Shown here one piece after another: positions 13,286 to 48,666 of a stretch of DNA of 64,000 nucleotides. Each line of letters begins with the position of its first letter. The stretch's first letter is position 1. The notes beneath the pieces were generated by a model that saw only the letters and a program-made list of their open reading frames with translations, was not told the origin of the DNA and did not search any database. The translations under genes were made by a program, and so were the position numbers. This stretch comes from Marsupella aquatica (taxonomy: Eukaryota; Plantae; Marchantiophyta). Location: positions 11,934,834 to 11,998,833 of the forward strand of contig OZ316899.1 in the NCBI GenBank assembly GCA_973895155.1, in the 5' to 3' direction.

Positions 13286-13866
13286 TGAGCAATCATGGAC
13301 TGCCAAGGAGGTTCATAACGATACATTTAATTAAGAGGACACCGATCCTTACTTCCTTCCTTATGTCGTGTGCATTAGTGATTAACGCAATTGTGCCTTC
13401 ATGACACAAATGTAATGAGAAGTCAGGTGAGAAAGTTCCGTGTGGTGTGGGCCCCAAGGCTTTCTCATCTAGACTGGGGATCGACGAGCTACCCACTCAT
13501 CGTAATTTTGAACTCACGACTAGTTAGTCTACGTCTCCACAGTTACGCAGGGACTTTGCAAACTGTGAGATCTTTGCAAAAGGCCGCACGGGATCCAGGA
13601 TATGTGCACCTTTCCCAAGTTTTCGAGTGTGGACTAGGCCACGAGGATTGTGGAAGCTCTTTCCGAGGGTCGGGCTTAACTCGAGAGTAAGAAGGTCGAG
13701 TCGAACGCTGGCGAACCGAGCCGGCGGAAGCTAGTTTCGGAGTAGAGATGATATTTTTGAGATTGGAAACAGGCAGGCTGTGATGGATCTCATGAGAAGA
13801 GTGGAGGGCAGGGGTCACGACGGAGTGGATGGGTCGAAATAATTGGAGTTGGTTTGGGAGGAAACA

Positions 13867-16800
13867 ATGGCAGTTGCGGACAATGCAGGGGTGGAGAGCT
13901 TGGGTATTGGCATGGGTGTAAATATGGGGGTAGGTGTGGGACACCACCCCGTTCCCGTGATGAGAACTTATCCACTACCTTCTGTGGATGCATCGGACAG
14001 CTCTGTGAAACAAGTGTTTGATCCTTCGCGTTTGGAGCAGCAACCACAGCATCAACATCTCCAAGTGCTTCAGCAGACGCCAGATACGGTACAACACATT
14101 CAACAATCGAAGCAGACGAGATCGGGTCCCCATCCTCCCAAACAACAGGTTCCGCCTCAGCATACCGCATCACGTTCAAATGGAGTTATTTCCCGGGACC
14201 CTGAGGCAGTTGAAGGGGTTCCTGCAGTAGATTCTAGAAGCAATGTTAGCGACGACAGTATGCGGGAGCTAGAAGATCTTCTGACGAAGCTGAATCCTCT
14301 TGCCCAAGAGTTCGTTCCTCCGTCTCACACCGATACAAACTCCATGGTACTCCCAGCCACATCATCGAAAGGAAATGTGCGCAGGGTAAGTAAAGCTGCT
14401 CATTGAGCTTTTGATCAAATGACGGCGGAAGGCACCTATATGTACTTGTTGGAAGAGTATCTTATTGTCAATCAATGCCTTGTGAATTTGTTTCTTGTGC
14501 AGCAGAAGAACGGATACAGCAACCTTGGAAAAAGACGAGCGAACAGCCGAACGAGCAGGGCACAGCGGGAAGACAGTATCCGGAGAACTGTGTACGTGTC
14601 CGACATCGACCAGCAAGTACGTTCTTCTCACTGTATGCGGGGCTTTCAAACGTTCACGTGCATGAAGTCACACTTCTTTGGGATCGGTCGGATGTTTTTC
14701 TAGAAACCCGATTTTTTCTATGGATCCTCGATGCCGAATGATGATGTTTCAGCACTACAGCTTTCGCAAAGAGTTATGACCTATCCTGTATGCAGTTTAT
14801 CTTGTAATGCCGCACAAACACCCGCGATAGGCAATTCCCGATGAGCACTAGGATGTTCAAGAATCTAACCATCGTTTTGAGATCTAGTACGTCTTGAATT
14901 TGTCCTGATTTTTTTCTGAGATAGATCAGCCTTCTGTTAAAACTTGATGACTTGTTCCTCCGCGGCTTGTGGAAGGTTACCGAAGAGCAACTTGCGGCTC
15001 TTTTCATCACGTGTGGACAGGTAATACTCGTTCCGCTGGCAGCTCTTTAAAGGCAGTCTTAGATCCTGTCCAGGTATCCGTGTAACGTGATTGCTGTGCT
15101 GCAGGTTGTTGATTGTCGCGTTTGCGGGGACCCAAACTCTGTCCTTCGCTTTGCGTTTGTCGAGTTCACCGACGAGGGTAAGCTATTACGGCCCTCTCGA
15201 AATAGACAGGTGTAGGCAGGTTAGTCAACCAAGAGATCTGCCTCTGGCAACTTTATTCGAGTACTTTCCTGTAGTCTATTTTGACAATCCATGGTGATTT
15301 TGTGGATGTCATGTGCCTTTGGATTTTTTCGGGGTGTTGTTTAAATGCAGATGGTGCTCGTGCTGCACTAAGCCTCGCTGGAACAATGTTGGGATACTAC
15401 CCTGTTCGTGTTTTGCCTTCCAAAACTGCAATTGTACCTGTGAATCCAACATTTCTTCCTCGGGTGCGCTCCTAGTTTCCTCATTGACAACTTTCCGCTG
15501 ATCTGTACAATGTTGAGTTGGGGTCTTTCTCATGATATTGGTCCCTTTCTTTGCCCTGGTGAGTAATGTTGGTCCTACTCGGTGGGGTTTGATTTCTACC
15601 ACTGATCAAGATTTCTGGTGATGCATTGGAATTGGTTGCGCAAGTTGTCAGGAGTCCAGTGGAGGACATGTTGCACGCTTTAACATATTATCTTTCAATA
15701 TACTTTTATTCCATTTCAGTCCGAAGATGAGAGGGAAATGTGCGCGCGCACCATTTACTGTACGAATATTGACAAGAAGGTGAAGTGGATATAGATAGGC
15801 ATGTTATTACTTCCTGAGCAGTGAAGGTGAGGTCACGCATATTGTGATTGAATGGTTCTGTTGATAGGGAAGTTCATGTGCAACAAGATATTTATCTTCT
15901 GTTTAGGGGTACAACTCCGTCCTTCATGGTTTGCGAATGTGCAATCATTGCGCTAAGACTGCTGTGTTGCATGCAGGTATCTCAGGCAGACGTGAAACTG
16001 TTTTTTGAATCATTATGTGGGGAGGTACTGTCCTATTCTGTTTATTCGTAATCAACTAGGGCCCCTACTTCGTCTACTGTTGTTTCCAACTACAATATTT
16101 TCCTGTAGTGTGAGTTTAAGGTCGAGATTAGAATTCTGTTGGCCAAATTTGTACCGTAATTTACACTTCGTGGGTTCTGCAGGTTTCTCGGTTGAGATTA
16201 TTGGGGGACTACCATCATTCCACCCGCATCGCTTTTGTTGAGTTTGTGATGGTAAGTGGTTTTGATCAATATTACACTTCGGCAGTTGATGAAAGTAGAC
16301 CGCACTGTGGAGTTTGTGAAGTTGGCTTACTGGAAGCGATGTGCGCAAAACTAAGCGTACTGGTTCGTTACTGAAGAGTGTATCCCATTAAAGAGGTTTT
16401 TATTGGTGGATGCATACTCGTTTTCGATAGTTCATACTAAGGCGAGCATTGTGAAAGATGGAATATTTAGGATTAAGAAAACAATGCCGGAGGAACTCCT
16501 TGTGACAAAATGTGACAAATTGCAAACAGATAAAGGTTGTGTAGGGCAACTGTATGACATTCTTTGTTTGGAATTATTTTTTACACATGCTGAAGTTGTC
16601 TTTGAAAGGAACTTCGAAACATTCTTGTATCAGTCATATCCAAGCTTCTGCCTGTGGAAAAATGAATCACGTCGTGTGTTTTGCAAATAACAGGAGTTCA
16701 ATAGAGGATATCTTGGGGTAGACCTTTTGACAGACTGTCATTCTACCTCGTCTTGTATTGAGAACTGTATTTTTCTTTGTCTATGTTTGTCGTCGCTTGG

Positions 16801-23658: not shown

Positions 23659-24739
23659 TGTCACGCCAAAAGATTCATCCTTAATTGGATTTCAGCTTAG
23701 GCGGCCATAAACTCCATTAATATTGAGGTTCAGGCAAGGAGGGACGTGCATATGATACCGTGTTCCCCTAACTTGACACTAAATGTGCCCAATCCTATTC
23801 TTACCCGTATCATAGGTATACTTTGTATTCCACCACCGGAACATACCTCAAGTTGATAGCGGGATCAACCCCGGTTTAAGGACTTCTAAGCCTTCGTGCT
23901 GTCCGCCTACAATCCGGATCCGATGATACGGGCATTTAACCCAGACTTGCAACCATTATCCGCAGCCATCACCCCGTGCGCAGCTCGTACAATGCGTTCG
24001 GCCAAGCATTCCATACATGTATACGAGACTAATGAACATAACAGCTTACACACATACAGTCTCGGTTTACACAAAGGAAATGGTGGGGAAAAACTTTCAA
24101 TTAATAAATCCGTCATATGTACATATACAGTTGACTCGACTTCTTTGAGAATAAATAGCCCAACGACAATGAGGTGTACACTACAACGGGGCCCGGCTCC
24201 GCACTTGCCCAACGAGCTTAGTTGTACCCTCACTCCACCGTACTATTCTATTCACTAAGGTCAGGACTCCCTGCACATCCGCAGATACCCAATTCAAAAC
24301 CCAAAGTCCCCCCCCGCTACCTCTACCGGCGGTGCACTAAATACTAACTAAGAGCCATGGCTAGGAGTGGTCACGTGCTCGAGTTCTAGCCCATGCTAAT
24401 CATAGCTAAACGCCAGTCCACTAAATGGCTTGTCGTTACCCTAAGATGCTATGCTAAGAAAGGTTGTCAGCACTGCTCTAACTAGTTTCGGCGCTTGTCG
24501 ATAGTGTCCTACTTCCATGGATAAACCTACGCTACTCTAAACTATCGGTGCCGCCTAATGTCTAGCCCGCTTGTTAGATCCGCCCGAGTGGGACTTGGAT
24601 CGGCCGTCTCGCTGCCTCCTCAGCCCGTCGACGTCCTACTTGAGGATCTGGACCTGGTCCATGAGAGAATCATCCTCTCTCTTCATTGCGTCTATTTCCT
24701 CCGCGGCCTCCTGGCACACCTCTTCCAATTGCTGACCGT
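23659..24739 (-). mobile_element. Truncated, diverged second copy of the large LTR-like unit at 426-4373
   Basis: Starts TGTCACG; shares GGACTTCTAAGCCTTCGTG, GGCTCCGCACTTGCCCAAC and the end of the coiled-coil ORF (GAGGATCTGGACCTGGTCC). Cut by the LTR at 24740. Confidence 0.75.
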
Positions 24740-25206
24740 TGTCGTGCGCATAAACATTGCTACACAACATACATCGCTTGTCACACATATCTAAACATAG
24801 TCACAATCAACATCACAAACATAAGAGAATGGAGTACTAGTGGAACTCCTATCCACACATGTCCAAAACCCACAATAATCATCAAGAGCAATCGAACAAC
24901 AATTGATGCCAATCAAACACACAATCCTGTCCGACGCAATCACACACTTATGTCAAGCCAAACACACCTTGCACCTCAAGGAATCCACGTTACGTACACA
25001 CAACCTAGACAGCCACACCATAGCCGCTAGAGTTTGTGCTCGAAAGGCTCAACATCAAAAGATGAGACCTTTGAGCCAACACAAAGAGATATATAACTAT
25101 CCCTCACAAACATACACTAACCCTAAAACACTTAGATAACACACATATAAAAGCCTCAAACCTACATAGTCCAATATCCTATACTACCACTCATAATGGT
25201 GTGACA
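24740..25206 (-). repeat. 467-bp LTR (TGTC...GACA), same family as the LTR beside the DNMT-Gypsy; no TSD
   Basis: Inverted TGTC/GACA termini; colinear with 27392-27844. Confidence 0.75.
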
Positions 25207-27391: not shown

Positions 27392-27982
27392 TGTCGTGCG
27401 CATACACATCGCTACATAACATATATCGCTTGTCACACATATCCAAGCATAGTCAGAATCTAACAACACAAACCTAAGAGAATGATCTACAAATGGAACC
27501 CATGTCCATACATGCCCCAAACCCACCTACTTCAATAGTGCAAATCGAACAATGATCGGTGCTAATCCAACAACGATCCAATCCGACGCGATCACACATG
27601 TATGTCAAGCCCAACGCACCTTGTGCTTCAAGGAATCCACATTACATGCACACAACCTGGTCAGCCACACCATAGCCACCAAGCTCATGCTCAAAGGCTC
27701 AACATTGAAAGATGAAGCCTTTGAGCCAACACAAGGGATAACTATCCCTCACACCAACTCAAACTAAACATAGTGCTCATATAGCACACATACAAAACCT
27801 CTATACCTAGATAGTACTTTACTACCACTCTAAATGGTGTGACAGTTGTCATGCGCATACACATCGCTACACAACATACATCGCTTGTCACACATATCCA
27901 ATCATAGTCACAATCTAACGACACAAACCTAAGAGGATGATCTACAAATGGAACCCATGTCCATACATGCCCAAAACCCACA
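27392..27982 (-). repeat. 3' LTR region: 136-bp unit (27847-27982) in tandem with a 453-bp TGTC..GACA unit (27392-27844)
   Basis: 27847-27982 repeats the first ~135 bp of 27392-27844; the PPT abuts 27982. Confidence 0.7.
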
Positions 27983-28157
27983 ATCGCCCCCCTAGTTGGA
28001 AGTGAGGTCCCCTAACTCTAGTTAGCCATGAGTTCTACAAGGTTGATATACACCTTTTTAGGTGTGAATTTCAGGAGGCCGGGTGCAAGTGAGCCTCATC
28101 GATCACCTACCTGCAATCTATATCTTCCACAAGAACACAAATGATAACTAGCTGGCA

Positions 28158-28298
28158 TCACCAGCATTGAGGACATAACCATGATCCACTAGGAATCATG
28201 TGCAAGGGTGGTGTCAAACACGGCATGTGCCATCCTCTAGAACACTGATCACAAATCAACATAGTAGCTACTCCCTGAGCAGACCCACACAACATACA
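28158..28298 (-). pseudogene. PHD finger (C4HC3) at the integrase C-terminus
   Basis: CMLC..MLICDQCSRGWHMPCLTPPL..IPSGSWLCPQC has all eight Zn ligands plus the conserved W. Confidence 0.92.
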
Positions 28299-29471
28299 CT
28301 TCAAGCCAGCATGAACATGTACCAAGCTTGGATCCACAGTACTATCAATGTTTGGAAGATGACATGGCGCACAATTACGCACATGATCCTTCCAAACTAT
28401 ACCATCACGTCCTTCCAACATAAGGACTCCATAAGACAACACTTCACGCACATGTAAGATTGTCCGCCCTGCGGTCACATCAAGCGTCGTTGGTGCTGTC
28501 TGCTACAAATAAACATAATCACCAGGATGAAATCTTCTAATCCTCGTGCGATAACCTCCTCCACAAATAGTAGCATACCACAAAGTATCACAATGTTGGG
28601 CAATAGCAAGGTTGTCAAAGGCCATGGGCATGACTCTCTCAAAAACTCATGCCCTCTCTAAACAAACCTTGACCCAAACATCTGGATCATCCAAATCCAC
28701 AATAGTTGCAACATCACGACGAATAGCTGTTGGCAAATCTGGTTCTCTACCATAGAGCAAGAAATAAGGTGAAAAGGATGCAAGTGATGCTTGTCAACTG
28801 AAATGGTAGCCCATAGCTAACCAAGGTAGTTGGAGATCCCAGTCTCCCAAATGACCAACCTGCAAGCCATACTTACGCAATCCTCTCTTCACAGTTTGTA
28901 CAACTCTCTCTGCCAATCCATCTGCTTCAAGATGATTGCGAGAAGTAGTATGATGATCAATCAGAGCTTGCTCACACAAACCCTCAAAATCTCCATGGGA
29001 TTCCGTGCCCTGATCAGTCAACACCTCAGATGGTGCTCCAAAGTGACTGAGTACTCAATCCAAAAATGTGGTAGCCACTCCTCCACTAGCTTTATCTGGC
29101 AATGCCACTAGTTCAATCCACTTGGAGAAGTGCTCCACCATAACCAAAACATACCGATTATGACGTTGGGTAAGAGGCAATGGACCATCAAAGTCCAAAC
29201 TCCATTGATATCCCAAACCCATGATTGGCAACTGATGCAACTGGGGAGTGGGAGCATTGAACGATGCCCGCGCTCGATCACAAACCACACACTTAGCTAT
29301 CAATTGTTGGACATCAGTGTGCATACCGTGCCACCAATATTGTGTCTGCAGCAAGCTATAAGTGTACTTCACCCCAAAGTGCCCTAACTCCTTGTGTGCA
29401 TGTCGCACCAAATGTACTCGTTGTAACGGTTTTGGTACAACCAACACCTTCCCATCACGTAGTACCCTCAA
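28299..29471 (-). pseudogene. Gypsy integrase (HHCC + DDE core), frameshifted
   Basis: AHKELGHFG...CVVC; WSLDF; VEHFSKW; LTDQG; ADGLAERVVQTVK. Confidence 0.92.
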
Positions 29472-29507
29472 AAGATGGTTTCCTTCCCATCAAAATCTCT
29501 TGGCTCG

Positions 29508-31287
29508 TTATAGAACCCTATCACGCTCCTTAGCATCAACATTGCCACCAATGGAGACAACATGCAAATATTCCAACACTCTCACATCGTTGTGAATATC
29601 TTGTTGTCCAAAAACTACATCACTAACATCCATATCTGAAGACTCATCATCTACTCCATCCAATGAAGTAGAGTCTACAGATCCACTACATACTGGCACC
29701 CAACAAAGGAAGGCAGATGCATGCCATCCTAGCACCATCTCCTTATCTGTCTCATCATGCCATCGACCTCCAGTCTCATCCTCTTGATTGGTACATGGAT
29801 TGCGGCTCAACCCATCCGCATCCAAATTCACTTTTCTAGGTCTATGCACAACCTGAAAATCATACTCTTGCAACAACAATGCCCATTGTGCAAGCTTCCC
29901 TCTAAGCTTGTCATACTCCATTAACCACTTGAGAGGTTGATGATCAGTGATCAAGGTGAACAATTTACTAAACAAATAGCATCTGAAATAGCAACAAAAA
30001 TGTGCCATAGCCCACACTGCCGCCAAACACTCTCCCTCATAAGAGCTGTACTTAGCCTCTACTGAATTGTTGGATCTGTTGGCATACGCCACAACAAACT
30101 CATTCCCCTCATCATCCTTCTGAGTCAACACTGCTCCAATCAGTGTGAAGCTCAAATGGTCGCCCTGAAATGGGTCTTCTCAAAATAGGTGTTGACGTCA
30201 GTCTTTCCTTCAACTCTTGGAAAGCATGCTCCTGGTCGTCTCCCCAAATCCACTCCTGGTCCAATTAAGTGAGTATAGTTAAAGGTTTAGCAAGCTGGCT
30301 AAATCCTTTAACATACCTCCTATAGTAGCTCGCCAATCCCAAGAATGCACAAACTCTGCTCACATCAGTAGGAAGAGGAATCTGTGTAATGGCCTCCACC
30401 TTAGTCTGTTGCACACCCAATCCTCCTGGGTAGATAGTATGGCCCAAATACTCAATCTTCTCTTGAAAGAACTTACACTTGCCGGGATTGAGCTTCAATC
30501 CATGTTCCCTCAATCTCTCAAACACAATCTGCAAGTATCTCTGATGTTCTTCCACAGTAAAACCCTAAACCCTAAACCCAAAATATCATCAATATAACAT
30601 CTGACAAAATCCAAACCTGCAAGGATTCAATCCATGACTCTTTGGAACTCAGCTGGTGCATTCAACCCAAATGATAAGAACAACCACTGATACAAACAAT
30701 CTTTGCCATAAGAATCAATCCCCCAGAATGTTGTCTTGGACCTGTCAGAATGCCTAATTGGCAACTGATGGTACCCCGCCCTGAGGTCCAACAAACTAAA
30801 AATCTTTGCATGCCCCACTGCATCAAAGATCTCCTTCGGTGTGGGCATGGCATATTGATCAGATTTTGCGTGACAATTAATAGGGTGGTAATTACCGCAT
30901 ATTCGCCTATCCATAAAATTGCCATGCATATCCTTCTTGGCTGGCATCACTGTGGCAGATGCATACTCCCCGTATGAAATCTCCACCAAACCAGCTTCCA
31001 ACAAATCTTGAGTTCTACTCCGGATCAATGCCCTCTCCATATCACTATATCGGTATGGTCGTCGAAAGATTGGCGCATCACTAGCCAATTCCATCTAAAT
31101 ACCAGGGCCCTTCAATGTTCCCAAATCCTTCATGCTAAATGCAAAACAATTCCAGTAACTCTTTAAGAATTGATGCATTCGACATCTCTCACCCCTTGTC
31201 AACTTAGGGCCAATTTGTGGCTCCCAACTCTCCATCAAAGCTGTGATGTCTTCCTTTGGGATTGAAGAGATAGTCGGTGGTTGCTAT
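29508..31287 (-). pseudogene. Gypsy reverse transcriptase + RNase H, disrupted
   Basis: LDLRAGYHQ, FGLNAPAEFQR, YIDD, FLGLASYYRRY, GAVLTQ, YSSYEGECLA, TDHQPL, DADGLSR. Confidence 0.93.
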
Positions 31288-32429
31288 TTAGCAACAATAG
31301 CTTTTAACTACATTGCCACCAAAGATGTGGCAAATTACAATACTGCCACTATTTTTAGAGTATTTATAATACTGCCACCCTTTTTGTATCCATGTAACCA
31401 TACAGAGAGGAAGGGTAACCATGGGTCATGTTCCATCCCGCGATGGACACTTGTTGAGTGCTGGTGCATTCCGTTTGAATGTTTCATCCCCCGACTACAA
31501 GCTCACCGTAAACCACGTCAATTTTAAACTACCCTCCAAGTCGACCTTTCAACACAGCCTGGGCAGTATCCTTTGTGCGGGAAAGTTTGTTTGTGCACTC
31601 CAACGTTAGCTGCGCAGTGGAGTTCAAGCAATCTGGGCAGTGGATCGAGTTTGACCACTCTGGGTAGTGGAGTTGAGCGCGAGCAATCTGGGCAGTAGAG
31701 TTTGAGCCATCCGGACTGTGAGCGCGAGTCCCCCCGCCAGGTAAACATGTGCATTACTTTGCTTGTACATTGTGGATGACTTTTTCACAACTTGGTTTCT
31801 CATTTTGTGACTTGAAATCCTACGAAAATTGGTGGTCGTAGGGTTTACATTAGTGTCACATAGCTCAAACGATGCAATCGCCAGTTTGCTCAGTACCGCG
31901 CACATTGCTTTCTTGTTCATTTTATTTTGTGAACTCATTTGCCACGACTCCTTGGACCACACAATAGCTGGTTCATATTCATACTCCCGCCCCCACTCCT
32001 TATAAGTCAATGCTTTGGAGACCTGTCACTCTGACTGGAATCGACCATGACCTTTAAAGCTTTGTTTTCCAGGCGCAACAAAGTTGCCTCTACTCCATCA
32101 ATTATTTACGCAACGGAGCTGCCTCTGCTCCATCGATTATTTGCGCAACGGAGCTGCCTCTGCGGAATTAATTCTTTGTGCAACGGAGCTGCCTCTACGG
32201 AATAAATTTCTGCAATAGACTTCGACAGTCGTGCAACACAGGTTGGATAGCACCTCCATCCAACCATCAATGCAGCATTTTTGGTCTTGAATCCTTGAAT
32301 GATGTAGTTCCTGAATTGTGAGGCTGAGGACTTCAGGTACTCTGCGATGAGACTTGCTCACCCTTGGTACATTGTGGTATTAGTGACTCATGTTCATGTC
32401 ATGTGCACTTTGTACGTAGCACATCCAAA

Positions 32430-33257
32430 ATGGCTGCTGCGTCTTCCAATGTTTGTGGCAAGCTTGCCAAAGTCACAAATTACAACCCACTAAAAGACAC
32501 AGTGGAATCATTGCGTAAACGGATCGATCTTGCCTTCAGGCCTCAATGGGATAGGTATGTAAACTCTTGCATTAGCTTATGCAGCCAGCTTAAATTCATT
32601 GAAGTATTGAACACATTATTCGTGTATGGTGCCTCTGTTTTTCTCTGCAACTGGTTTTCTGTGCAATGTGCACTAAGTTTGAATACTATGGAACTTTTCT
32701 TAACCATTATTTCTCTGTGCTTCTCTTTCAGGTTTCCAGTGGGCAATTCCATAGAATCTTGTTGTTTTACATCACAAGCTATGAAAGATTACATAGCAAA
32801 GTATCACATCTTTGTTGCCAATCCAAAATGGAATTGGAAGCTTGTTCAGTCCACACGGGTTGACATGACCAGGGCCTGGGTACGTCCTACTCCATTTGAG
32901 TTTTGGGCAGTGGAGGAGAGCGACAACATTGGGCGGGCATTCACTTTCCGGTTTGAGGATTGCAAAATTGGCCAACAGCAAAAGATCCAGATTGGAAATC
33001 CAGCCGAGATTTTAGGAGAAGGGGAGGTCTTCAGAGATGGTGACCTTTGCTACTGTTTCCAAGAGGAGCCTGACTGTCTGCTTGTCACTGAATTGTTCTA
33101 CCTGGAGACTATCACTGGCAAGAAAGGTTTTGTTGTGTTTGGCATTCATAAGTGGGTGCCTCAGAATGTTAAAGATTGGAAATCCACTATTTCCAACCTA
33201 CTAGCCATGCATTATTTCCATGAGCAGCCAGGAAGCTTTAAGGTGTACGAGAAGTAG
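32430..33257 (+). CDS. Intact orphan MULE accessory gene, about 216 aa after splicing 32555-32731, convergent with the transposase
   Basis: Open ORF with a Kozak-like AAAATGGC start and a GTATGT...TTTCAG intron of 177 nt; no recognisable domain. Confidence 0.55.
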   Translation: MAAASSNVCGKLAKVTNYNPLKDTVESLRKRIDLAFRPQWDRYVNSCISLCSQLKFIEVLNTLFVYGASVFLCNWFSVQCALSLNTMELFLTIISLCFSFRFPVGNSIESCCFTSQAMKDYIAKYHIFVANPKWNWKLVQSTRVDMTRAWVRPTPFEFWAVEESDNIGRAFTFRFEDCKIGQQQKIQIGNPAEILGEGEVFRDGDLCYCFQEEPDCLLVTELFYLETITGKKGFVVFGIHKWVPQNVKDWKSTISNLLAMHYFHEQPGSFKVYEK

Positions 33258-34139
33258 ATTGTAGCCTACCTTACAGGCTTCGTCATTCTCATACTATAGT
33301 GGTGTTAGAAGAATATCTCTGGCCGCATATATAGCTCAGGTAGTTTGTAGCCGCACAAACATCAGACTTTCGAGGCAGACTTTTGTTCTTACACTTGCTT
33401 TGCTGCCTCCAAGACTATTTTGACTATTGCAATGTACTATGCTTGGTCTTTTTCAATGAAACCCCAAACACTTTTGTTGTTTGTGTACGTATTTACAATG
33501 TTGTTCATATAATGAAAGTGCAAGAGTCTGTTTTTAGAGTTCTGTAATACACAGCACATCCCTGAACAGATCTTTGTGTGCCTTTGTTTTTCCATATGGT
33601 CGACTTTCATTTGCTGCATTGCCTTTGCAATGTAGTTATGCTTAGGTATTGTATGAAAGTTTATGGAATGAAGGCAAGCAAATTGTTCGTTGTTTTGTTT
33701 TCATGTTTAGAGTGATCGTCCAGATCAAAAACTGCCCACACCTTACACATAGGAGTCCATCATCCATCATCAGAGTCAATACAAATAAAGGGTAAGTGTG
33801 AAGTCCCCAGGGTGTACAAAGTAGTGAGATTGGCAAGAATTTTATCATTCATTGTCACATTCATTGCCAAAAGCAAACAACACCAGGGCCACATAAGAAC
33901 CCATGTTCACAGTCACTCTCAACAAAATGTATCTTGCCAGTCCAAAATATGTTTATGACTGTAAGCAAAATCCTTCAGAAAAACTGGCTACAAGGGCACT
34001 AAATGAACCCATTTCGAAAGGGCAAGTTAAAGATGGGCCGCTTTCATTGTCGTCCTCCATGAATGGTGCTGACTGGTTTATATCCACAATGTCATCATTG
34101 TCATCTCCATTGCCAGAATCTGATATGTCTTCAAACTCC

Positions 34140-36400
34140 TCACCACAAGTGTGAGTTCTGTCCTCTCCTGCCCATGTCCAAGTTGATCCTTCTTAAGCTG
34201 GCAAGTTCGCTTGTCATGGCCCCTTTCCTTGCAGAAACCACAGGTCCTGGGCAATCAGACCCCATCCTCCTCTGGAACCTCATCCTTGGTTTCTCAGTTG
34301 GACGTCCTCGCTTCCGCCTCTTCAAAGGTGGACCACACCATGAATCAGGGTGTAGATCATCCTTCAAAATTGCAGGAAGGCTACTACTATACGTCTGTTT
34401 GAATGAATCCATAGAACAAAATGGTGAAACAAAATCGTAATGGCGAAGATGCAATCTGGTAATAGCTCTCCAAGCATGACTACATGGAATGCCCACATCC
34501 TGCCAATCACCACACAAACATTCCTTCAGTGGCTCCAAACTGACCAAGAAATGCCTGCCACTCGAATCTGTAATTCTGACTTCCGTAGGGCTTGATGGGT
34601 CTGCAACAAGTTGAAGACCTTCCTCATGTTGATCCCTTAGTATTGCCATGATGTTCGGAGGAAATGGTGTACTTGGTCAAGTGCAAGCTAGAGGGGTACC
34701 AAAGGAGTCCCCAAGGACTAGCTCAAAAAGGAGAGGGGAAGGACTAGAAATGTCATTAAGATTTAGTTGAGCACACTCCCAAAAAGGTTGGGCACACTTT
34801 CAAACGATTGGGGGCACTGCCAACAATGTTGTGCACACTTCCAAAAAGATTGGGCACACTTCTAGAATTCCCAAACATTTGGACACACTTCCAAACATTT
34901 GGCATGCATGATCTAACCTTTCAATCTCACCAAAACAATCCTGGCCATTCCATGTAACATTTTGGTCTTTTTGTCCTCTAGTGATTGCTTTTACCAAGGA
35001 CCTATGTCCTTTTGGTGGAGAAAATGGAGATCCTTTCAGTACCCCTCTAGCTTGCACTTGACCACTTAAAGACTCTGCAAGCATCCTCTTCTCATAGTAG
35101 TGCTTCATCATGTAATCCCATATCAGATTGGATTGTTTGAAGGCCACTTCTTGTTGCTCAGCCTTCAGTGCTCGATTTGTGCTCTCAGCTTGCTGGGATG
35201 TCTTGTGGCCCCACCTAATAATGACAATGCCAATAACAACATCAAAACAAAACACTGAATTTCTCTTCAAGGAGTTGAATGACTAATGCATCAATGGGTA
35301 GGGTGTATGAAGTATGACCTGGGATAGGGCATAAATGCTCTTGAGTAATGAGATGGATAAGCAGTGTTCACAATGTACTCAAATGCTGATGGGTGCTCAT
35401 GTTCAATGCGGTCTAGCCTCCGCAAGTACTGTCTGATCCTTGTTGGCAGCATACACCAGCCCATCAAATGCTTTCCTTGCTGCCTTGTTGAAGTGGGCTT
35501 GCAAATTTTTTCCCAAGTGCCATGTGCAAAAAGCATGGAATGCTAGTGGGAAGACCTCATCCACAACATTCTGCAGTCCCTTCTCTCTATCTGAAATAAA
35601 AACAGTACAACTACGAGACAATTCTGGGATTGCATCATGCAAGCACTTCAGAAATCTCATCCAAAATTGTTCATTTTCTGACTGAACCATGCAATAAGCC
35701 CGAATCAAAACAGTGTTATTAGCATCTAACACTGTGGTTACCAATAACATCCGAGGATATGCTGACTTGGTGTGAGTGCCATCTAAAGCAACGAGCGGCC
35801 TACAGTGTGGATAAGCCTTTCGAGATGCTGAAGGACACACAAAGAGAGTTTCAAAGGATCCATTTGGTGCCGTGTAGTTTGCCACAACCCCTGGATCCCT
35901 TTGTAAAATGTGGTGACAATGACTAGGAATGAGATGGAAGGACTCCTTCTCATCACCATCTAGTCGGACAAGAGCCTTTTTCTTGGCTGTATGTCCTGTG
36001 TGACATCTGGATGCCAACTAGCCTGGGCAGTGTCCCTCAAAGAGCAAGCTCTGGTTTGTCTGTTTTTAATTAAAATGTCAAAGATCAAAGTAGCCAAGTA
36101 GTCAGATGAATTATGCATTTGCCTAATGTAATAATCTACTGCACAACAAGTATGGTGATCATTCAATTGCATAATGGTAATAGTTTCCGTCTTGGAGCTC
36201 ATAATGACTCAAATGGACCACTGACATTTCTGGGTAGGGTTTTCATGCCACCACATTTTGCATTTCCCAAGAAAACATAGTCTGTCCTTTTTGTAAGTTG
36301 TAATAACCCGTTCTGTTGCCACCCCATGCCTAACAATTGCCATCTTGACATCATCCCAACACTCAAATGTCTCACCTTTCTTTAAAGAAGCAACAACCAT
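34140..36400 (-). pseudogene. MURA-like transposase (MuDR N-terminus, MULE DDE domain, SWIM finger), disrupted
   Basis: GETFECWDDVK; ALDGTH...DANN...FISDREKGL...HAFCTWHL; SWIM CLCGDWQDVGIPCSHA. Confidence 0.9.
34675..35063. mobile_element. 389-bp MITE with 25-bp perfect TIRs and a 4-bp TSD (ACTT), inserted in the MULE transposase
   Basis: GGTCAAGTGCAAGCTAGAGGGGTAC...GTACCCCTCTAGCTTGCACTTGACC; ACTT at 34671-34674 and 35064-35067. Excision restores MLAESLS-TPFPPNIMAIL in frame. Confidence 0.9.
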
Positions 36401-37840
36401 GACTGTAGTATGTTACACCCAAAAAATTTATCCTCTGCATACACACAAAAAAAGGATGTCACAAGTCAGGCCTATATAAACAGATGGGATCAAAGCATCC
36501 ATTTTGGCGTAGTTCCCCCGCCCCCAAAAATATATATATATATATAACAAAAATGCTGAAACAGATGTCCTCAGTGCACAGAGAATATGCTCAAACAGGA
36601 AAGAGAAAAGTTTTGGCTATATATGGATAGGGGTGGGGTTGAGAGCATACCAGATACTAGGCCACGCACTTCAGAGCAAATAATAAACTGATGCCTTGAG
36701 AAATCTGACAGGAAAGATAAAATGCTCAAACATATGTCCTCAGTGTACAGAACATTATCGCAGCAAGGAATCTCCCAACTCAATCTCCAAAGCCAGGGAA
36801 CTGAATTTAAGGGGTACTAAGTTGAGATAGGTACACTAGCAGAGTCAATGTTGAGCCGTGGAAATAAATAAAAACATTTCCAAGTCAACTTTTGTGTGCA
36901 ATAGAGTGTTGGGGTAATGCTTCCGTTCCCACTTCCGCAAAAGACAAAGGCTTCCAATCAGACTAAAGAAGGCCGGAACTGAACTCATGTAGTGTTTGTG
37001 TCGACAATATTAGTTTTGATGTTGGAATGTGAATGTTGCCTACGTACTGCAACACTAAGATTGCCTGTCGAGAAGGGACCTACCAAAGACCTTGCATCAA
37101 TGCCATTATAGTACGGGATAGTTTAATACCTTTGCCTTGAAGACATCCAGGGCATAGCCAATTTTCTCATAACGGCTTCAAATGCAACTGCAGGTATCTG
37201 TGTCCTCACTATGATTTGTCTTCAGCTTGCGATCACTAAACTTCACTCGCCTGAACCACTTCGGCCTGCTTCCTTCCACTAAACACGTGATGAATGTGAA
37301 ATTCAGCTAGTCAGTAGCATTTTTGACAGAGCAAAATGTAGATAATTTTTTTGTCCTCTAGGGTGCGATTGCAAGGCGGCAAGAAGGATCGAAGCATCAT
37401 TACTAAATCCCGGGACTAAAACAGTTGGCGATGACGCTCAGGGCCTGTGCGTAGTGACTTTGCACTCATCCTTCATTCCAACCCGGCCATGAACATTCTG
37501 CCTGCAGCCATGCTTATTCAAAGGCTGCTAGGGTGATTCCCACTGATTTCTATGTTGTGTTGAAATGTCTCGCCAAACTGCAGACTATGGATGAACAACA
37601 GTCCTGCGCAGTCCGGGAGGGAGAGTCTGGCTGAACATTGGACGAAAAACTTCACCATTAACAGACCTGACAGATTATTCAGCCTACGAGGGTGAGACAC
37701 ATCAACCATGGGTTTACTCAAGTAGTCCCAAGTAACCGCATACAAAAGGGTGGCAGTATTATAAATACTCTAAAAATAGTGGCAGTATTGTAATTTGCCA
37801 CATCTTTAGTGGCAATGTAGTTAAAAGCTGTTAGCAACAA

Positions 37841-39377
37841 TTTGAGCAGTCCCAACCTGCTCAACAATCTGTCTTGCCTTGGCCAATCCTGCCATAGGTC
37901 CATGGACTGTCTGCTTGCCCCCAGTTATGGTTGCTACTGTCTTAGTAGGCCGCAAGCTCACCAATGGACGATCAGTAACACCAAAAGAGCGCATCCGCAA
38001 TTGTTTAGCTAATCCCAAGTTGATAATCCAAGTCAAGCAATTCAAATCCATGGCTTGACCAAGGACCTGGCGATGTGAACTCTTTGACACAGAGGCAACT
38101 GCAGTAGTGCCTGTCAAAAATCCCATAGCATGCTCTCTTTCATCAGCAGTAGGTTCCACTAACTGCTGTAGAGTTGTATCCCATACAAGTCCAGGCCCAC
38201 CTGCTCTGAATGCATATGAAGCAGAATGACTCACAAAAGTGGGTAATGCACAACGTGGGCAACCAACTACATTGACTACTGCCAATGGTGGTCTGTCAGG
38301 CTGGGTCACACCTTGTGCACGACGCCTTGGATCCAAAATATCATCCACCACCAAGGCTGCTAAGCAAGGAATGCTATCAAATGCTCGCTTCAACACCTCA
38401 CAAGGTAACAAATTAGTCCACCATAAGCGTGGACAATGTGCACGAGAGCCCACACGTGCAACATCCAATAACATAGCAGGTCCAATCCAAGACTTAACCT
38501 GATGAACACTGGCAATAAGTTGATGACGATCATCCCCCAATAATGGCACATTCTCCAAAATGTAGGCAGGGGAATGTGTTCGATGCATCTGAAGATGATG
38601 CTAATCCCATAACATCTCCCAAAATAATGCAGATCGTGGATCATGAAGTCCATGTCCAACTCCAGCTCTAGATTGACCTTGACATGGCCAACCTGCAATC
38701 ACCAAATCAATGGGGCCAACGCGATCCAAATGATCCGCCCCCAACAATGAAATATCAGCTGGTAATGCATGCTGATAATCACGAACGGCATCCACTGGCA
38801 ACAACTGTGGGTAACGTTCGACCAACAATGCCACATTACGTAATGAGACTCTACGTGCTGTCTCATCAGTCTCCACATACAAATAACTGCACACAAGAAT
38901 GTCGGCTTGAAGAACGACAGCCAATCCAGTGCTAATTCCACCAAATAAATCCAACAAACAAATACCCTCATGTGGATATTGCCATGCAATAGGAGTAGTA
39001 TCCAGTGGTGAAAGACTCACTGGTCCATTTGCAGTTGACTGCTCTGCTCCTGATTGCGATGTAAAAGCATGACGCCATGCATCATGTATCAATCGGGCTG
39101 CACTTTGTGGCAAGGCCTGTCCAGTAGCCCATAATGGTGTCACAACACTATCAATGGGCAATCCATGCATGAAGTGTTCCTCATGTGCCTCCTCCACCGT
39201 AGGAACATCTGTTGCATGTGTGTTACCCTCAATCAAATCATCAACTCTAGTAATCAAACTACTGAATGCTGCCAAAGACAATGGTGTAGATTTGGGGCCT
39301 CCAACAGGTCCACTAAATTGCACTAGCAATTGGCTCAATCGAGCATCTCCAGATTGCCAATCGGGTTGATACGACAC
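37841..39377 (-). pseudogene. C5 cytosine DNA methyltransferase domain (DNMT3-like) within the Gypsy pol
   Basis: Motif I LLDLFGGISTG; II VETD; IV IAGWPCQGQS (catalytic PC); VI ILENV; VIII RAHCPRLWWTNL; IX EREHAMGF..GTT; X RQVLGQAM. One in-frame TAG at 38601-38603. Confidence 0.92.
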
Positions 39378-41181
39378 CGATTCATTCCAAAAATCTTTTT
39401 GAAACGATCATACCTATGGGATTCATTCCAAAAATCGGTATGGAAAACGATCATACCACGAATCCCATAGGATAGAGTCCAGTAAGATCTTTTTAGACCG
39501 GGAGTTCCTTGGTACTCCTCAAAACTTACAGATCGTTGTCGTACACCCTTCTTTTTGGGTTTGAGTGGCACAACTAATTTTGGACCAGAACGTAAATTGA
39601 CAAATACAAGTCTACTAGTAGTAGGATTTTCTACAGTTCCTACTTGATTGCTCTGCTGGATCGATGATACTCTGGCATTCACAAATCTTGATGGTGGGAA
39701 ATTGGGGGACTGGAAATCAATGAGTAAATCTCTTGGCCGAACTTCTGATTCCGGGGGTGCACTTTGCGAAGACGAAGCACCTTTCTTCTTACTTCAAATT
39801 GGCTGGATTTTCTCAGGCATTCCTCATCTCCATTTTCCCGAATGACCTGATCAAGCTAAATATCTTCACGATTCCACTGAATCCAGGATGTGCTTAAAAG
39901 AAGCGAGGAGAGATGTGATTCATGTGGCCCAATTACATAAAAATCCAGGTGATAAATACTATCACCAATTTGAATGGGTACCGCGTTGAGTTCTCCTATA
40001 GGTTTAATTAATTGTCCATTGATCCAGAACTGTGTGTAGGTAGGTAAGATTGGTGCAAGAGCTAAGTTCTGAGCCAAGCGAGAAGATAGTAGATTGATTA
40101 TGGATCCTCTATCAATGGAGACCTCTTTAACTAAGTATCCCGCCAATCTAACCTGAGATTCAAAAGAGCTTTGAATGGACCTTGCCATCGCACTGGAGGG
40201 ATGCATTGTGGACTTAACTCCGAACATGCTTTCTCAAGGCTCAAGATCTTAAAAGTTACTAGGTCAAGACTGGGGACAATCGCCTCTCTTCCTCTCTGCG
40301 AGGTGTGCCTCTAGGTACTTCCCTCTTGCTAGATGGCTTTGTCGTGGACAACAGGCTTGTCCCGGTTTGAGTCTCCTCAGCGTTGAGGTCTAGAAGACCA
40401 CAATCCCTTGAAGCACAAGGTCGGAAAAGCTGCGCCCTTGCGTATGTGTACTGCAAAATTCAGGCAGGTGCGTTGTTTTGGAGCTGCGAGCTTCAGAACG
40501 TCAAACCTCCAAAGTTCCAGAGCGTAAGAGCGTCAAAGCACCCAAGCACAAATGGCATTGAACTCTAGAGCTTCAAAACACAAAGGCGCCAAAGCACAAA
40601 AGTGCCTTAGCTCCGTAACCGTTAGATTCCAACTCTTCGTATCTGGCACTTGTCCTCTTTGAGTTCAGTACTTCGTCACTCGTTGTCTGCACTGGGTCAC
40701 CTTCTTCTCCTGTTGCCTCGTGTTTCTCTCTGGAGAATTTCACTCGCCAAATCTGCAATGGAAATTACAATGTATCTTTCTCCGGTAATTCTCCCATTCA
40801 ACCTTAATACTACTAGATGTAAATTCGCTCCTTCCCACCAAGTTATAGACAACCAATGAACTTCGCGTCTACCTCTTACACTTAGCACCCAAGTTTGCAC
40901 ATACCTATTGCGCAGATTCCTAATGCGTAAGGATCCCAAGAATCTAATGGGTGGGGGCATTCTAAAAGGGGAAATCTTCCATCTTACTCCAAGGCTAAAC
41001 TACCTGAGCTACCATCAATTGAACAGAGAGGTTTCTAATCCTCCTTAATTTAGCCAACCTTCTTTTTGGGTGAGAAATTAAGATACATTCTGCACCCATG
41101 AGTTGTTTGGCCTTACTATCTTAGCTACTTCTATCTTCTTTCAATTTTCCTTCTTCTAATTTAGCATAGGTTCCATTCCGT
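39378..41181 (-). mobile_element. Degenerate retroelement segment with a retropepsin-like domain (39856-40227); continues at 50241-50677
   Basis: EVSIDRGSIINLLS...PIGEL..VPIQIG...LDFYV..LLLSTSW resembles an aspartic-protease fold. The segment is split by the CCGT TSD of the 41182-50240 element. Confidence 0.55.
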
Positions 41182-42845
41182 TGTCTGGGGGGGAAATGTG
41201 GTTCTTGAGGAAGCATTGGGCCTATGGCTGCTAGTGTCAAGAGAGAACTTAGGTTAAGATCATGATTACTATTCTAGACTGGGTAGCAGACACCACAATG
41301 AATGGTTATGTAGATGAAAGCACAACATCATAACCCTTTTCTCCATACCTACGGACTATTGCCTCCTTGGCAGCTACCTTGGGTCGAGTTACAAAACAAA
41401 TATCTCCCAACCACAAAGAAACGGGAGGTTCGTTGGAAGAAGGTTTGTTGAGATCCATCTCAATAAGATAAAAATTGTGCAAGCCCAATCCTGCCCATAA
41501 ACTACATAAGGGTATACAATTGGCTCTATTGAATTTAACACCACAGTTGCAAATGCTTCTCCAAAGTGAAAAGTCATATGTTGACGCATTATCTCTTTTT
41601 GGAGTACATGAATTCTAATAAGGAAAGGATTAGGGAGAGGAAGAATAGGTACTGGTCTGGGCATTAAACCCTAAACCCTAAACTATCAAATATTCCACTC
41701 AACTAATATTCATTCTAATGACAAGATATAGAATCATTCAACGAAAAGACCATTCATTTCAAACAAATACTATGCATTGAGTTAACTCTAAGTATATACA
41801 TGCAAATATTTATCTTAATAAGTTTATCTTCTTTTGAATGAAAACACTATCTGAAGGTCCAACGCATACAAACTACCACTGACTGAGCTAAGCTCCAAGC
41901 CAGCGTGCATGCGTGGGTCTACTTCATAAGGGTTTCACCCAAAAGAAGCACAGGATGTTAAGCTATTGTTGAGCACTTTGCAATTCTTTAGGACTTAATA
42001 ACCATCTCCTATCAAATGATAACGCTCTTTGAAGGTCCAACTCATACAAAATATCTTTGGCCAAGCCAAAGCTCTAAGCAAGCGTGTATGAGTGGATCTA
42101 CTTCATAAGGGTTATATTCATAGAGGAGGTCATCAAGTCCAATGGATTCTCAAGGCTTCACAACTTAGTTGATGAAAGATGGGGAGTAAGGGGAGAGAGC
42201 CCTTCTCCTCTTTATTTATAGTGCTCACACTTCAAGCACACAAATCAAACATGGCACATGGATGGAAGCCATGTGTCACACATCCAAGGCAAGTAAGTGT
42301 GCTAGTACTGTAGTTACATGAGTGGAGCAACTGTAGGCAGTACACTGTAGATCGTACATTGTAGATCGTACACTGTATCATGCATACTGTAGATCGTACA
42401 CTGTAGCATGCATACTGTAGATCGTACACTATAGCATGCATACTGTAGATCGTACACTATAGCATGCACACTGTAGGTCTTGCACTGTAGCATGCACACT
42501 GTAGGTCTTGCACTGTAGCATGCACACTGTAGGTCTTGCACTGTAGCATGCACACTGTAGATCGTACACTGTAGCATGCATACTGTAGACCGTGTACTAT
42601 AGCATGCACTCTGTAGACCGTACATTGTAGCATGCACACTGTAGATTGTACACTGTAGCATGCACACTGTAGATCGTACATTATAGCATGCATACTGTGG
42701 ATCGTACACTGTAGCATGCACACTGTAGATCGTACACTGTAGCATGCACACTATAGACTACATATAATGCAAGAATTCAAACTACTATCTTATACTACTA
42801 AGTTATACTTAGAAGGAACTTACTAAACAAAGAATCCCCATGACA
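41182..42845 (-). repeat. 3' LTR (1664 bp) with a 28-bp tandem array at about 42340-42760
   Basis: Colinear with 48667-50240; array unit CACTGTAGCATGCACACTGTAGATCGTA. Confidence 0.93.
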
Positions 42846-43003
42846 TATCACCCCTACTAAACCTGTGCAGCCTCCGGTCTGCACCATACTTAATAGTCAC
42901 CCCTACTAATCTTGTGCATCTTGTAGTCTGCACCACACTTAATAGTCACCCTTACTAATTTTGTGCATCTTCTAGTCTACCCCACACTTAATAGTCACCC
43001 CTA

Positions 43004-46000
43004 CTAACCTCTTACATATTTTGTTGAAATATTCATTGAGTGAAGTAAGAGGTTAGTAGGGGCCCTCCAATGTTGTACAAATTTCTTGATCGAGGAGTGA
43101 TCTTGTCCGAGACAGCCTTCAGAGACTAAGACCCAATCCTTTTCTTGGATTGTCTTGGGTCTCAATCGATGGGTCTTGTCAAATCGGGATTTGTTAGCCA
43201 TTCTTTTTTGCTTCAATTGTTTAATAGCGCCCTGGATCTTTGTAGGAGTGTGATCAAACTGCTCTATGCGACGAAGAATCAAATCCTCTTGAGATACACC
43301 ATCCTCCCACTCTATTGCCCTCCAACTATTAATGTCTTCTTCTATTGGCATGAGTGGAAGTTGACCATTGATCAACTCTGAAGGTGCATATCCTGTTACC
43401 GATGTGCAAGTTGTTCTGTGTGCCATAAGTGCTAGGGGAAGGAAATTTGGCCAAAATGAGATTCTTCCCTTGCATGCCTTAATCAAGGCATTCACTATTG
43501 GTTGGTGTCCCCTCTCACTCTTGCCATTACCTTCAGGATTGTAAGCAGTTGTCAATTTGAGATTCACCCTAAACTTCCTGAAAAATGTAACTGCTTCCTC
43601 TGCATTGAGCTCCCCTCTATCTGCCCTCATGCAATCAAAGCATCCATACCTTGCAATGAAGTCCTCCAATACAAATCTGCATATCGCCTCGGTCTTATTT
43701 GTTGTCAAGGCTCTACCTTCAATGTAGGAGGAGAGGTCCTCAATAGCCAAGACAAGGTACTTGGCTCCTCTTACTCCTCTCGGCATGTGTACCACATCTA
43801 CAGCCCATTGGTAGTGTAGGGAAAGAGGGTACGTGGGTTTTAGTCCATCTCTATGCTTCACCTTCGAGTAGAGTTGACACACTTTGCAAGTTTCCACATA
43901 CTTGCTTAGATCTACATACATTCCTGGCCACCAATATAGTCTTCGAATCCTTTCATAAGTAGCTTCTCGCCCCTTATGTCCTGCCACGTCGGAATCATGT
44001 AAGTCATGTAAAATTTTGTGTTTCTCTTCATCTCTACCAATGACTCTTAGAAGTATGTGCCCCTTCTTCTTTGGATGCTTCCAAAGGGATCCATCTCTTA
44101 CCATGAATTGGTAAGACTTCTTCCAAATTCTGTTGAAGTCTTGCTTACTCCATGTTGAATCTTTCTGCAACGTGGCAAGGTAACGCCCTATCTGCAACAA
44201 TTCCCCAGAATAAGCTTCCTCTTCAAACCTCAATTCCCCTTCATCTTCTCCATATGTGCTATGAAGGCACATTCCCTGGTCCTCTTCATCCCTATAGCGA
44301 GCTTGGGAAAGCATATCAGCTACTGGATTATCTCTCCCAGCAATGTGCTTTAACTCAGGATTAAACATTCTGATGAATGCTATCCATCGAAGCATTGCAA
44401 TATCTGGAGTATCACAATTGGCTATCATTCCCAGCAAGGGTAGACAATCTGTCTCCAGTATTACATTTGCTCCTATCAAATAGTCTCTTTCTTGGCAAAG
44501 TGCTACCTTTGCACCCCACAACTCTCATTTTACTTGAGGATATGCCTCTGTCTTTCTGTAAATATTTTTGCCCAAACCGTGCGGCAAACCTTTGTCCTTC
44601 CTCATCTTGCCCAACTGCCCATCCAGATGCATGAGGACTTGAGTCAATGGTCACGATTATTGGGTCAATACCATTGTACTTCAGAGGTCGTAACACTGGT
44701 GAGCTGGTCAAAGCCTCTTTCAATTGTTGCATAGCCTTTGTATGGCCTGCACTCCATACAAACCTCACATTCTTCCTTAGAAGATCATAGAGAGGTTCTG
44801 CAATGTGAGCAAAATGTGGTATCCATATTCTGTAGAAGATGCAGGCCCCAAGAAATCTCCTTACCTCTGAGGTAGTTCTGCAGTTCTCCATATCCTTGAT
44901 AGCATCCACTTTTGCTTCACATGGCCTTCTTCCATAAGGGCCACAAACTTGCCCTACTACCATGATCTCTTGTAACCCGAAAGCTGACTTCTCTCCAGAT
45001 AGAGTTACTCCTACTTCCTTGAGTCTTTGTAGAATAGCTCCCACATCTTGTAAGTGTTCCCACACAAATTGTCTTAGACCATCTCCTCTAAGTGTTTGAT
45101 CCCTCTCCTTGTACAAACACCCTTTTATGGGGATGTCATCAAGAAAAGGTCTAGTCTTCTCTGGAACAAACGGTTGCAAAATCCTATTCATGGCATTTTG
45201 CATATGGGCCACTGAGTTAGTTGCACCTTGAGGAAGGGTGCACATTCTTAACAACCCTAGTGGCGTCCTCATAGCAGTAATGTCTCTGCTATCTTGGGCA
45301 AGCTGAAACTGATCATACCCTGAGTATAAGTCCCCAATGGAGTAGATTGCTCTCCCAGCAAACTCCTCAGCAAACTCATCCACCACAGGTCCTGTGCCCA
45401 CATTCCTTATGGTGACCTTGTTTGGTGGTTGCATGTCTTGAATGAACCTTAGCTTCCCATTCTTCTTTCTCACCGTGAACCACCGATTTGAGTACGGAGC
45501 GTTTGATCTCTCAAGGATTTTGGCATCTAACTTCTCCTTGAGTAACTCCACCAACTTAGGCATCAATGCTCGTGGCACATAAATTGGCTTAAGGTCCCAA
45601 GGAACATGTGGAACAGTGAAGATTACCATTGGTGTGATCTCCCTTGGATCAGCACATCCAATCTCTCCAATGGAAAAGGAAAAGGCCTTTTCATGTTTGA
45701 TGATCATCTCCTTGAAGGCTCTTCTCTCTTCCTCTAGTAAACCCTTATCACCAATCTTTAATTTGAGCAACGTCTCCTCAGTGAATTTATGCCCAATCTT
45801 AGTACGATCTCTAAGACTTGGCTCCTCCTTTGCTCGCTTCAATATTTCCTTAGCCTCAGATGGCAAGGGAACTGCTGCAGGTCGCACCTTCTTGTCCACT
45901 GTTTTGTACTTTGTGTGTACTTCTGCAAAGTGCTCAATGTAACCATACACATCCCTTTCCACCTCCACTTCTCCTTTTTCTTCCTCAATGTCTCCAATAA

Positions 46001-46258
46001 TCTCTCGAAGAGAGGGTGGTAATCCCCTTTCCTCTAGTACTCCTTCTATTCTCTCTTCAACCTTCAACACTCCTAATGTGAACAAATCTTTTTCTTTCTT
46101 TTCCAACATCTTTTGAGCTCTCATCTTCACATCACCTTTATGAAAATAGCACACTTCACTAGTCCTACTCACACCAACAAAAGAGGAATGAACCTCCATA
46201 GACGAGACTAAAGGCTTGGCGTCCTGCCTGCTTGCTTCTCTTAGCGGGACGCCTAGTC
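43004..46258 (-). pseudogene. pol: RT, RNase H and integrase (frameshift near 44500; integrase truncated at the GPY/F region)
   Basis: DLYSGYDQF, LPQGATNS, FLDD, IDSSP, ETDCLPL, LH..AGH..CKVC, AVDVV, ADRG, GKSERGH. Confidence 0.92.
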
Positions 46259-48568: not shown

Positions 48569-48666
48569 CTTCTCCTTTGCTTCTATTTTCTATCAAGCTT
48601 CTTCTCTCATCAATATCCTTTTATCTTTGACACTAGCCTCAAGTTTCCCCAGTATGGTCGCCAACA

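Follow-up and report, generated by a model that had tools for sequence, protein, structure and literature searches.

Chromodomains are the standard histone readers on the integrases of LTR retrotransposons. What, then, does a PHD finger do at the end of a Ty3/Gypsy integrase in the liverwort Marsupella aquatica? The finger lies within 64,000 nucleotides of contig OZ316899.1 (the window, to which all coordinates refer). A preliminary description of this DNA had placed an intact C4HC3 PHD at the integrase end, just before the polypurine tract (PPT) and where chromoviruses carry a chromodomain, and had suggested that it could steer integration or DNA methyltransferase (DNMT) activity to chromatin unmethylated at H3K4.

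A six-frame scan of the window recovered all eight C4HC3 ligands in order on the minus strand (28298–28164), with ligand codons at 28298, 28289, 28253, 28244, 28229, 28220, 28175, and 28166; the pattern has a single occurrence across all frames and none in 100 triplet shuffles. The ligands, including the Trp two residues before Cys6, follow the PF00628 pattern, and the Pfam match scores 41.1 bits (cut-off 24) over the entire profile (1–47 of 47). The finger shares its reading frame (29486–28161) with the integrase H2C2 domain, core, and C-terminal region; that frame contains four stops 5′ of the PHD and none inside it, and it is followed by a single Trp and then a TGA stop (28160–28158, minus strand). 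These data bear out an intact PHD at the integrase end, in which "intact" describes the finger and not the element, which is dead. The PHD stop is followed, after 162 nt, by a G-rich tract that starts at 27995, and the same tract is found 86–345 nt 3′ of the PHD in many relatives, so that "just before the PPT" is a fair wording.

The PHD fold is present in the AlphaFold model of the last 113 amino acids, predicted with a mean pLDDT of 81 (79–92 per ten-residue block in the PHD). Foldseek comparison of this model returned PHD-containing chains of DPF3, DPF2, MORF/MOZ, BHC80, ATXR5, UHRF1, ORC1b, and BAZ2A, with rmsd values of about 0.8–2.6 Å over about 47 columns; the N-terminal domains of PHF1 also ranked high, with poor rmsd. 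Upstream of the finger lies a conserved His...Cys-x-x-Cys-His linker (28343–28375, minus strand), whose first Cys is present in 117 of 186 scored proteins and whose final Cys is invariant in the alignment designated A2. This linker could add a zinc half-site.

The element that carries the finger is a dead, 5′-truncated Ty3/Gypsy copy, inactive now. On the minus strand, it reads DNMT3-like methylase, a Mutator (MULE) insertion, reverse transcriptase (RT), RNase H (RH), integrase (INT), PHD, and repeats B-A-B, collinear with the full-length relative P0086 (gag-PR-DNMT-RT-RH-INT-PHD) and with the RT-RH-INT order, DDE integrase, and PPT of a Ty3/Gypsy element. The DNMT3-like C5 cytosine methyltransferase (38001–38972, minus strand; Pfam DNA_methylase, one in-frame stop) belongs to the same polyprotein, has its motifs at 38951, 38693, 38555, and 38444, and finds its best PDB matches in DNMT3A (E 1e-6). 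Between it and the RT sits the MULE, a DNA transposon inserted later (31296–37832; Pfam MULE and SWIM) and bounded by 89-nt TIRs (98% as an inverted repeat) with a flanking duplication of 9–11 bp. The RT and connection region (30130–31277, minus strand; tblastn with P0086 and P0002, Pfam RVT_1) is interrupted by stops and by two frameshifts, one near 30579/30558 and the other near 30140/30130. RNase H (29862–30140, minus strand; Pfam RT_RNaseH, 90.8 bits; tblastn 76% to P0002) is followed by the integrase (28299–29486, minus strand; Pfam Integrase_H2C2 and rve), which comprises the H2C2 domain, DDE core, β-stranded C-terminal region, and Cys-His linker and holds the four in-frame stops; the PHD itself (28164–28298, minus strand) is assigned from PF00628, the ligand codons, and PDB sequence and fold matches. 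From RH through INT to PHD, the window copy is 65% identical to P0002. The junction sequence places the 5′ break at approximately 39395–39407, with no protease, gag, or repeat A1 beyond it; tblastn with the gag and PR of P0086 found neither in the window, nor was an upstream A copy found there.

The 3′ end has the form B1-A2-B2, unlike a plain LTR. The PPT (27985–27995, minus strand), assigned by its position and by the same motif in relatives, lies directly upstream of B1 (27847–27983), whose CA end is separated by a 2-nt spacer from the TG start of A2 (27527–27844); B2 (27392–27526), 94% identical to B1, closes the element with its own CA end. Relatives L013, L016, L049, and L064 share this arrangement and show the full form, A1...B1-A2-B2 with TG/CA ends, of which the window copy is missing A1. 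Target duplications of 4 bp in L005, L013, L016, L025, L049, and L064 point to DDE integration. In the window (27392–27995) and in these six relatives, the integration ends (TG, CA, and the 4-bp duplication) coincide with the B|A junction and not with the start of the repeat that follows the PPT, and copies take the form A...B-A-B or, in L005 and L025, A...B with a target duplication. These forms fit integration from one- and two-LTR circles that had been opened at this junction, or recombination between B1 and B2 at a later time. The window also contains an older A+B remnant of the same family (24733–25206), 78% identical to A2-B2 and with no clear target duplication.

The position of the finger raises the possibility that the element is a chromovirus with a PHD in place of its chromodomain, a reading that we consider quite improbable. 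The positional analogy holds, but we see no sign of a chromovirus with a swapped domain. A GPY/F motif in the integrase C-terminal region is a chromovirus feature, and the GP[YF] pattern was not found in that region of the window integrase. Pfam scans detected no chromodomain in the window, nor in any of 83 related proteins collected with the integrase core alone as query. Split repeats are, to our knowledge, no chromovirus trait. We also built an RT-RH tree with FastTree from 174 rows, comprising 172 proteins that cover most of the query and two window elements; it includes few outside Gypsy rows and is without curated chromovirus references, which leaves some room for the chromovirus reading. 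The main PHD/DNMT group (support 0.919) excludes the outside rows, among them Chara CBR_g32130, which has a weak Tf2-type SH3 match, and animal Gypsy elements. Within this group, the window copy clusters with proteins of Calypogeia and Marchantia (0.99), beside P0002 and a Coleochaete transcript; among named relatives, liverwort elements are the nearest. The Marchantia records Mp2g26090 and MARPO_0091s0058 have DNA_methylase with RT and RH. Four divergent rows with a PHD are placed under a long-branch root, apart from the main group.

The window copy most likely belongs to the lineage of KnitGypsy-Dnmt3 from Klebsormidium nitens (de Mendoza et al. 2018, PMC5890265), because it matches that element in its DIRS-like repeats, Gypsy domains, and Dnmt3-like enzyme within Pol. 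The Klebsormidium protein KFL_009030040 matches the window DNMT (43% identity), RT, and INT; the tree puts it in the broad RT-RH group of the window copy (0.919) but on another sub-branch, with weak links between branches. Its record is partial and ends before the PHD position; another Klebsormidium relative, P0409, has the finger. The main text and searched supplements of PMC5890265 make no mention of a PHD, although Fig. 4c may show one, and the window copy, placed with liverwort elements, lies outside the range that the accessible text of that study gives for KnitGypsy-Dnmt3. We also considered the Selgy elements of REXdb and rejected this identity: Selgy elements measure 4.4–6.7 kb and are described without an extra polyprotein domain, compared with about 9 kb for the DNMT- and PHD-bearing relatives, and the text of PMC6317226 and its searched supplements do not mention a PHD in them.

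The finger is a conserved trait of the family, not private to the window copy. PF00628 is present in 66 of the 83 proteins found with the integrase core; of the remaining 17, five have a degenerate or cut PHD, seven end before it, one is an unrelated Gypsy, and four are truly without it. Among 80 loci fetched by integrase-core patterns with no use of the PHD, 67 have it downstream of INT, 10 end too early, and three are without it; many of these loci are seemingly the same genomic place assembled repeatedly, so they are not independent. Queries that included the PHD gave it in 32 of 33 homologues, and in most of the best 150 clusters (50% identity) the alignment extends across the finger, both figures being biased by the query. 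Relatives in Pleodorina, Tetrabaena, Klebsormidium, and Coleochaete have the PHD on record, and PHD-bearing relatives span chlorophyte, charophyte, and bryophyte-type sequences; the records of Closterium, Calypogeia, Marchantia, and Sphagnum relatives are without a PHD or stop before it. The preliminary description had held that absence from sibling copies would count against a role for the finger. The finger is present in them: contigs of close siblings in four sequencing runs cover both the PHD and the integrase, at summed depths (not copy numbers) that agree in order of magnitude, some contigs span from the INT C-terminal region into the PHD, and none of 10 listed sibling differences falls in a ligand codon. 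One family member, P0051 (in the cluster of P0004), is labelled in public databases as a protein of an uncultured cyanobacterium, probably a binning artefact.

That the PHD is a chance capture in the window copy, or a functionless passenger, we regard as hardly credible. The finger recurs across chlorophyte, charophyte, and bryophyte-type relatives and is under purifying selection between intact ones: in the stop-free pair L001/L002, dN is 0.069 and dS 1.58 for the PHD (core, 0.020 and 0.91), and in the pair L001/L003 the PHD values are 0.019 and 0.153, so that PHD dN/dS between stop-free families is about 0.04. What speaks for a passenger is that pN/pS for the PHD is near 1 among decayed copies of one family (five pairs, 0.42–2.28, versus 0.27–0.47 for the core). 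Together with pooled dN/dS values over 20 pairs (PHD, 0.41; core, 0.21), these ratios indicate that constraint on the PHD is weaker than on the core. The finger can also be lost. A Closterium-containing subclade of eight proteins (P0166, P0174, P0179, P0342, P0370, P0390, P0407, and P0412) has a short, often basic tail instead, which indicates that the PHD is dispensable there; two of the eight (P0166 and P0342) keep the DNMT in the same record.

To consider what the finger could bind, we compared it with characterized PHDs. The nearest solved PHDs by sequence are those of CHD4, DPF3 (PHD2), KDM5B and KDM5A (PHD1), ATXR5, BHC80, UHRF1, and BAZ2A, and several of the matched structures are titled as complexes with unmodified H3. 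Because the family PHD rows were picked by ligand pattern, ligand counts are circular and the non-ligand positions alone are informative. Two positions before the His ligand, where we take an aromatic residue to form part of the K4me3 cage, the window has Gly, as do 174 of 206 family fingers, and an aromatic is found in only 2 of 215. A K4me3 cage, a concept drawn from the accessible text on KDM5A PHD1 for H3K4me3-reading PHDs, is thus unlikely.

According to the same text, D312 of KDM5A PHD1 binds R2 and is essential, and P331, G333, and W335 hold the free N terminus and A1. The equivalents of these residues are well kept in 13 close proteins, that is, the window copy and its 12 closest (D312 and W335 in 13 of 13, P331 in 11, and G333 in 10). 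The acidic side of the pocket is not. D292A and E305A are each described as lowering KDM5A affinity about 6-fold, with the acidic residues tied to K4 and R8. At the positions of D292, E305, and D306, the window has Ala, Val, and Ala; no acidic residue occurs at the E305/D306 positions in the 13 close proteins (0 of 13, versus 122 of 202 in the rest), and acids just before Cys1 (2 of 13 versus 131 of 202) and at the D315 equivalent (0 of 13 versus 24 of 202) are similarly depleted. Mean net charge of the PHD is +2.2 in the close subclade, as opposed to −2.4 and −4.1 in the others. The best-matching fingers (KDM5 PHD1, DPF3 PHD2, BAZ2A, ATXR5, and UHRF1) thus share the A1/R2 residues and the missing aromatic cage with the window copy, whose subclade, unlike the KDM5 PHD1 class, is without the acidic patch before the first β strand and without the N-terminal Asp.

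For the proposed reading of H3K4me0, this outcome is mixed. The retained A1/R2 pocket, the missing K4me3 cage, and the likeness to PHDs of unmodified H3 favor it, but with the acidic K4/R8-side residues gone, strict H3K4me0 reading is uncertain, and weaker or more A1/R2-dependent binding is predicted. In KDM5A and PHDs like it, main-chain carbonyls are described as making part of the K4 contact, with no need for an acidic side chain, and a preference for unmethylated K4 may survive for that reason. The same residues bear on a non-histone role, in which the finger would bind DNA or a host protein or stabilize the integrase C terminus. The neutral-to-basic pocket without E305/D306 acids in the 13 closest proteins, seen in sibling copies too, would suit such a role, as would the short, often basic tail at this place in the PHD-less subclade; the conserved R2-binding Asp and A1-pocket Pro, Gly, and Trp argue against it, as does the partly main-chain character of the K4 contact. 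We judge a non-histone role unlikely, while taking it seriously.

Our preferred explanation, held with no more than moderate confidence, is that the PHD binds the unmodified H3 tip and tethers the integration complex away from H3K4me3 promoters. Given the biology of Ty3/Gypsy elements, the mature integrase would keep a C-terminal finger after polyprotein cleavage. The retained PHD would then bind the free, unmodified tip of H3, which would hold the integration complex on nucleosomes outside promoters marked by H3K4me3 and bias the choice of insertion sites. The preliminary description had also taken the TE-dense location as a fit for such targeting. We do not count this location as evidence, because the MULE and other elements entered the PHD copy afterwards, which makes the surroundings uninformative, and targeting cannot be separated from later insertion or selection.

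The alternative half of the original proposal, that the finger guides the DNMT, fares less well. The PHD could be a reader for the element's own DNMT3, as the ADD domain is for animal DNMT3, guiding methylation to the new copy or to chromatin that lacks H3K4 methylation. DNMT and PHD do occur together across the clade, in one protein record in 42 of 96 proteins and also in many loci; retrotransposon DNMTs methylate CG de novo (PMC5890265), and algal and protist DNMT3s are described as lacking companion domains (PMC12344493). Other observations speak against this role. The PHD is always 3′ of INT, whereas the DNMT precedes RT in one set of relatives (PR-DNMT-RT in P0086, KFL_009030040, and loci) and occupies the RH-INT gap in another large branch, with the PHD unmoved. 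In P0086, about 1,100 residues separate the PHD from the DNMT, which is flanked by PR and RT and would probably be cleaved away, and DNMT-bearing members without a PHD exist (P0166 and P0342). With the PHD fixed behind INT, the DNMT found in two places, and one subclade possessing a DNMT but no PHD, we think it more plausible that the finger steers the integrase than that it steers the DNMT, and we rate a reader serving the DNMT as improbable. The two activities could also complement each other. On a more speculative reading, a large, unnamed Ty3/Gypsy clade, extending from chlorophytes to bryophytes, may have an integrase PHD that picks H3K4me3-free nucleosomes and a co-packaged DNMT3 that methylates the new copy or its site; we offer this only tentatively.

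Other members of the family carry further sequence beyond the finger. Tails of more than 80 amino acids follow the PHD in 157 of 215 PHD-bearing proteins (e.g. P0017, P0024, P0182, P0199, and P0203). Most members of the branch that includes Tetrabaena and Haematococcus proteins have the DNMT in the RH-INT interval; in this branch, a segment with weak Tudor likeness (PF21743, E 0.001 in P0020) comes after the PHD, and beyond it a region that by eye resembles an N6-adenine methylase, with DPFxG and SPPF/SPWF-like motifs that we take to be marks of such enzymes. An ESM Atlas search with the algal tail gave only leads under 0.9, including a weak MTS lead at 0.87. These long-tailed algal members may be further multi-methylase elements similar to the EpiLTRs considered below.

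REM1 of Chlamydomonas, a Gypsy element with a PHD, reportedly carries this finger in a separate antisense ORF with a chromodomain. As with REM1, a role in limiting harmful insertions is proposed for the PHD of Gypsy-7a_cRei (PMC9940879), a Chlamydomonas Gypsy whose insertions are 2.6-fold enriched in intergenic DNA and whose LTR is drawn in subparts. The legend for Gypsy-7a_cRei lists no DNMT and names the PHD before INT, unlike the order in the window. With chromoviruses such as MAGGY, in which the chromodomain guides integration (bioRxiv 10.1101/2021.11.30.470311, PMC6673714), the window element shares a histone-reader fold at the integrase C terminus, upstream of the PPT; it differs in having a PHD, a predicted ligand at the H3 N terminus and not H3K9me, a DNMT, and split repeats, and no GPY/F motif. 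The EpiLTRs of Cymbomonas and Euglena likewise combine a DNA methyltransferase with a chromatin reader on an LTR element, but these are a chromodomain, DAM, and a DNMT4-related enzyme; the accessible text calls them distinct from streptophyte Gypsy-DNMT3 and mentions no PHD (bioRxiv 10.64898/2026.05.21.726589).

PHD–TE fusions are described as common in a eukaryote-wide survey, and chromatin targeting by PHD-bearing retrotransposons has already been proposed (PMC6673714, PMC9940879). PHDs in Gypsy elements and Gypsy-DNMT3 elements are thus each published, and what looks new is the family-wide pairing: neither an INT-terminal PHD together with DNMT3 across a family nor its presence in bryophytes turned up in the literature searched, although figures, Repbase, or a thesis may show it. 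With this family, DNMT-carrying retrotransposons reach liverwort and moss genomes; an opinion paper, by contrast, describes them as absent from land plants such as tracheophytes (PMC6338049). A clade-wide PHD that is kept under selection and paired with a DNMT3 offers a small expressible domain and stop-free relatives for testing chromatin targeting. Natural contrasts are available too, since one subclade has lost the acidic patch and another the entire PHD. Should the proposed roles prove true, such a reader–writer pair would rebuild the logic of animal ADD-DNMT3 inside a retrotransposon and add, for plants, a second way of targeting integration to chromatin, one that needs no chromodomain.

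Several other features share the window. A separate, younger Gypsy element (41182–50240) has 1.6-kb LTRs that are 89.5% alike and is itself nested in another decayed gag/protease-like stretch; its target duplication, CCGT, fits the NCGN preference reported for Phygy (PMC6317226). This younger element is unrelated to the PHD element (about 25–27% identity) and contains no PHD. Two 828-nt direct repeats (54228–61893), 99.6% alike and about 6.8 kb apart, mark a very young insertion or duplication, and the sole Pfam match between them is a LINE-type DUF4283 piece (56553–57518). Finally, a 35-bp tandem repeat array occupies 12713–13318, with a PAM2 motif match nearby (13843–14406).
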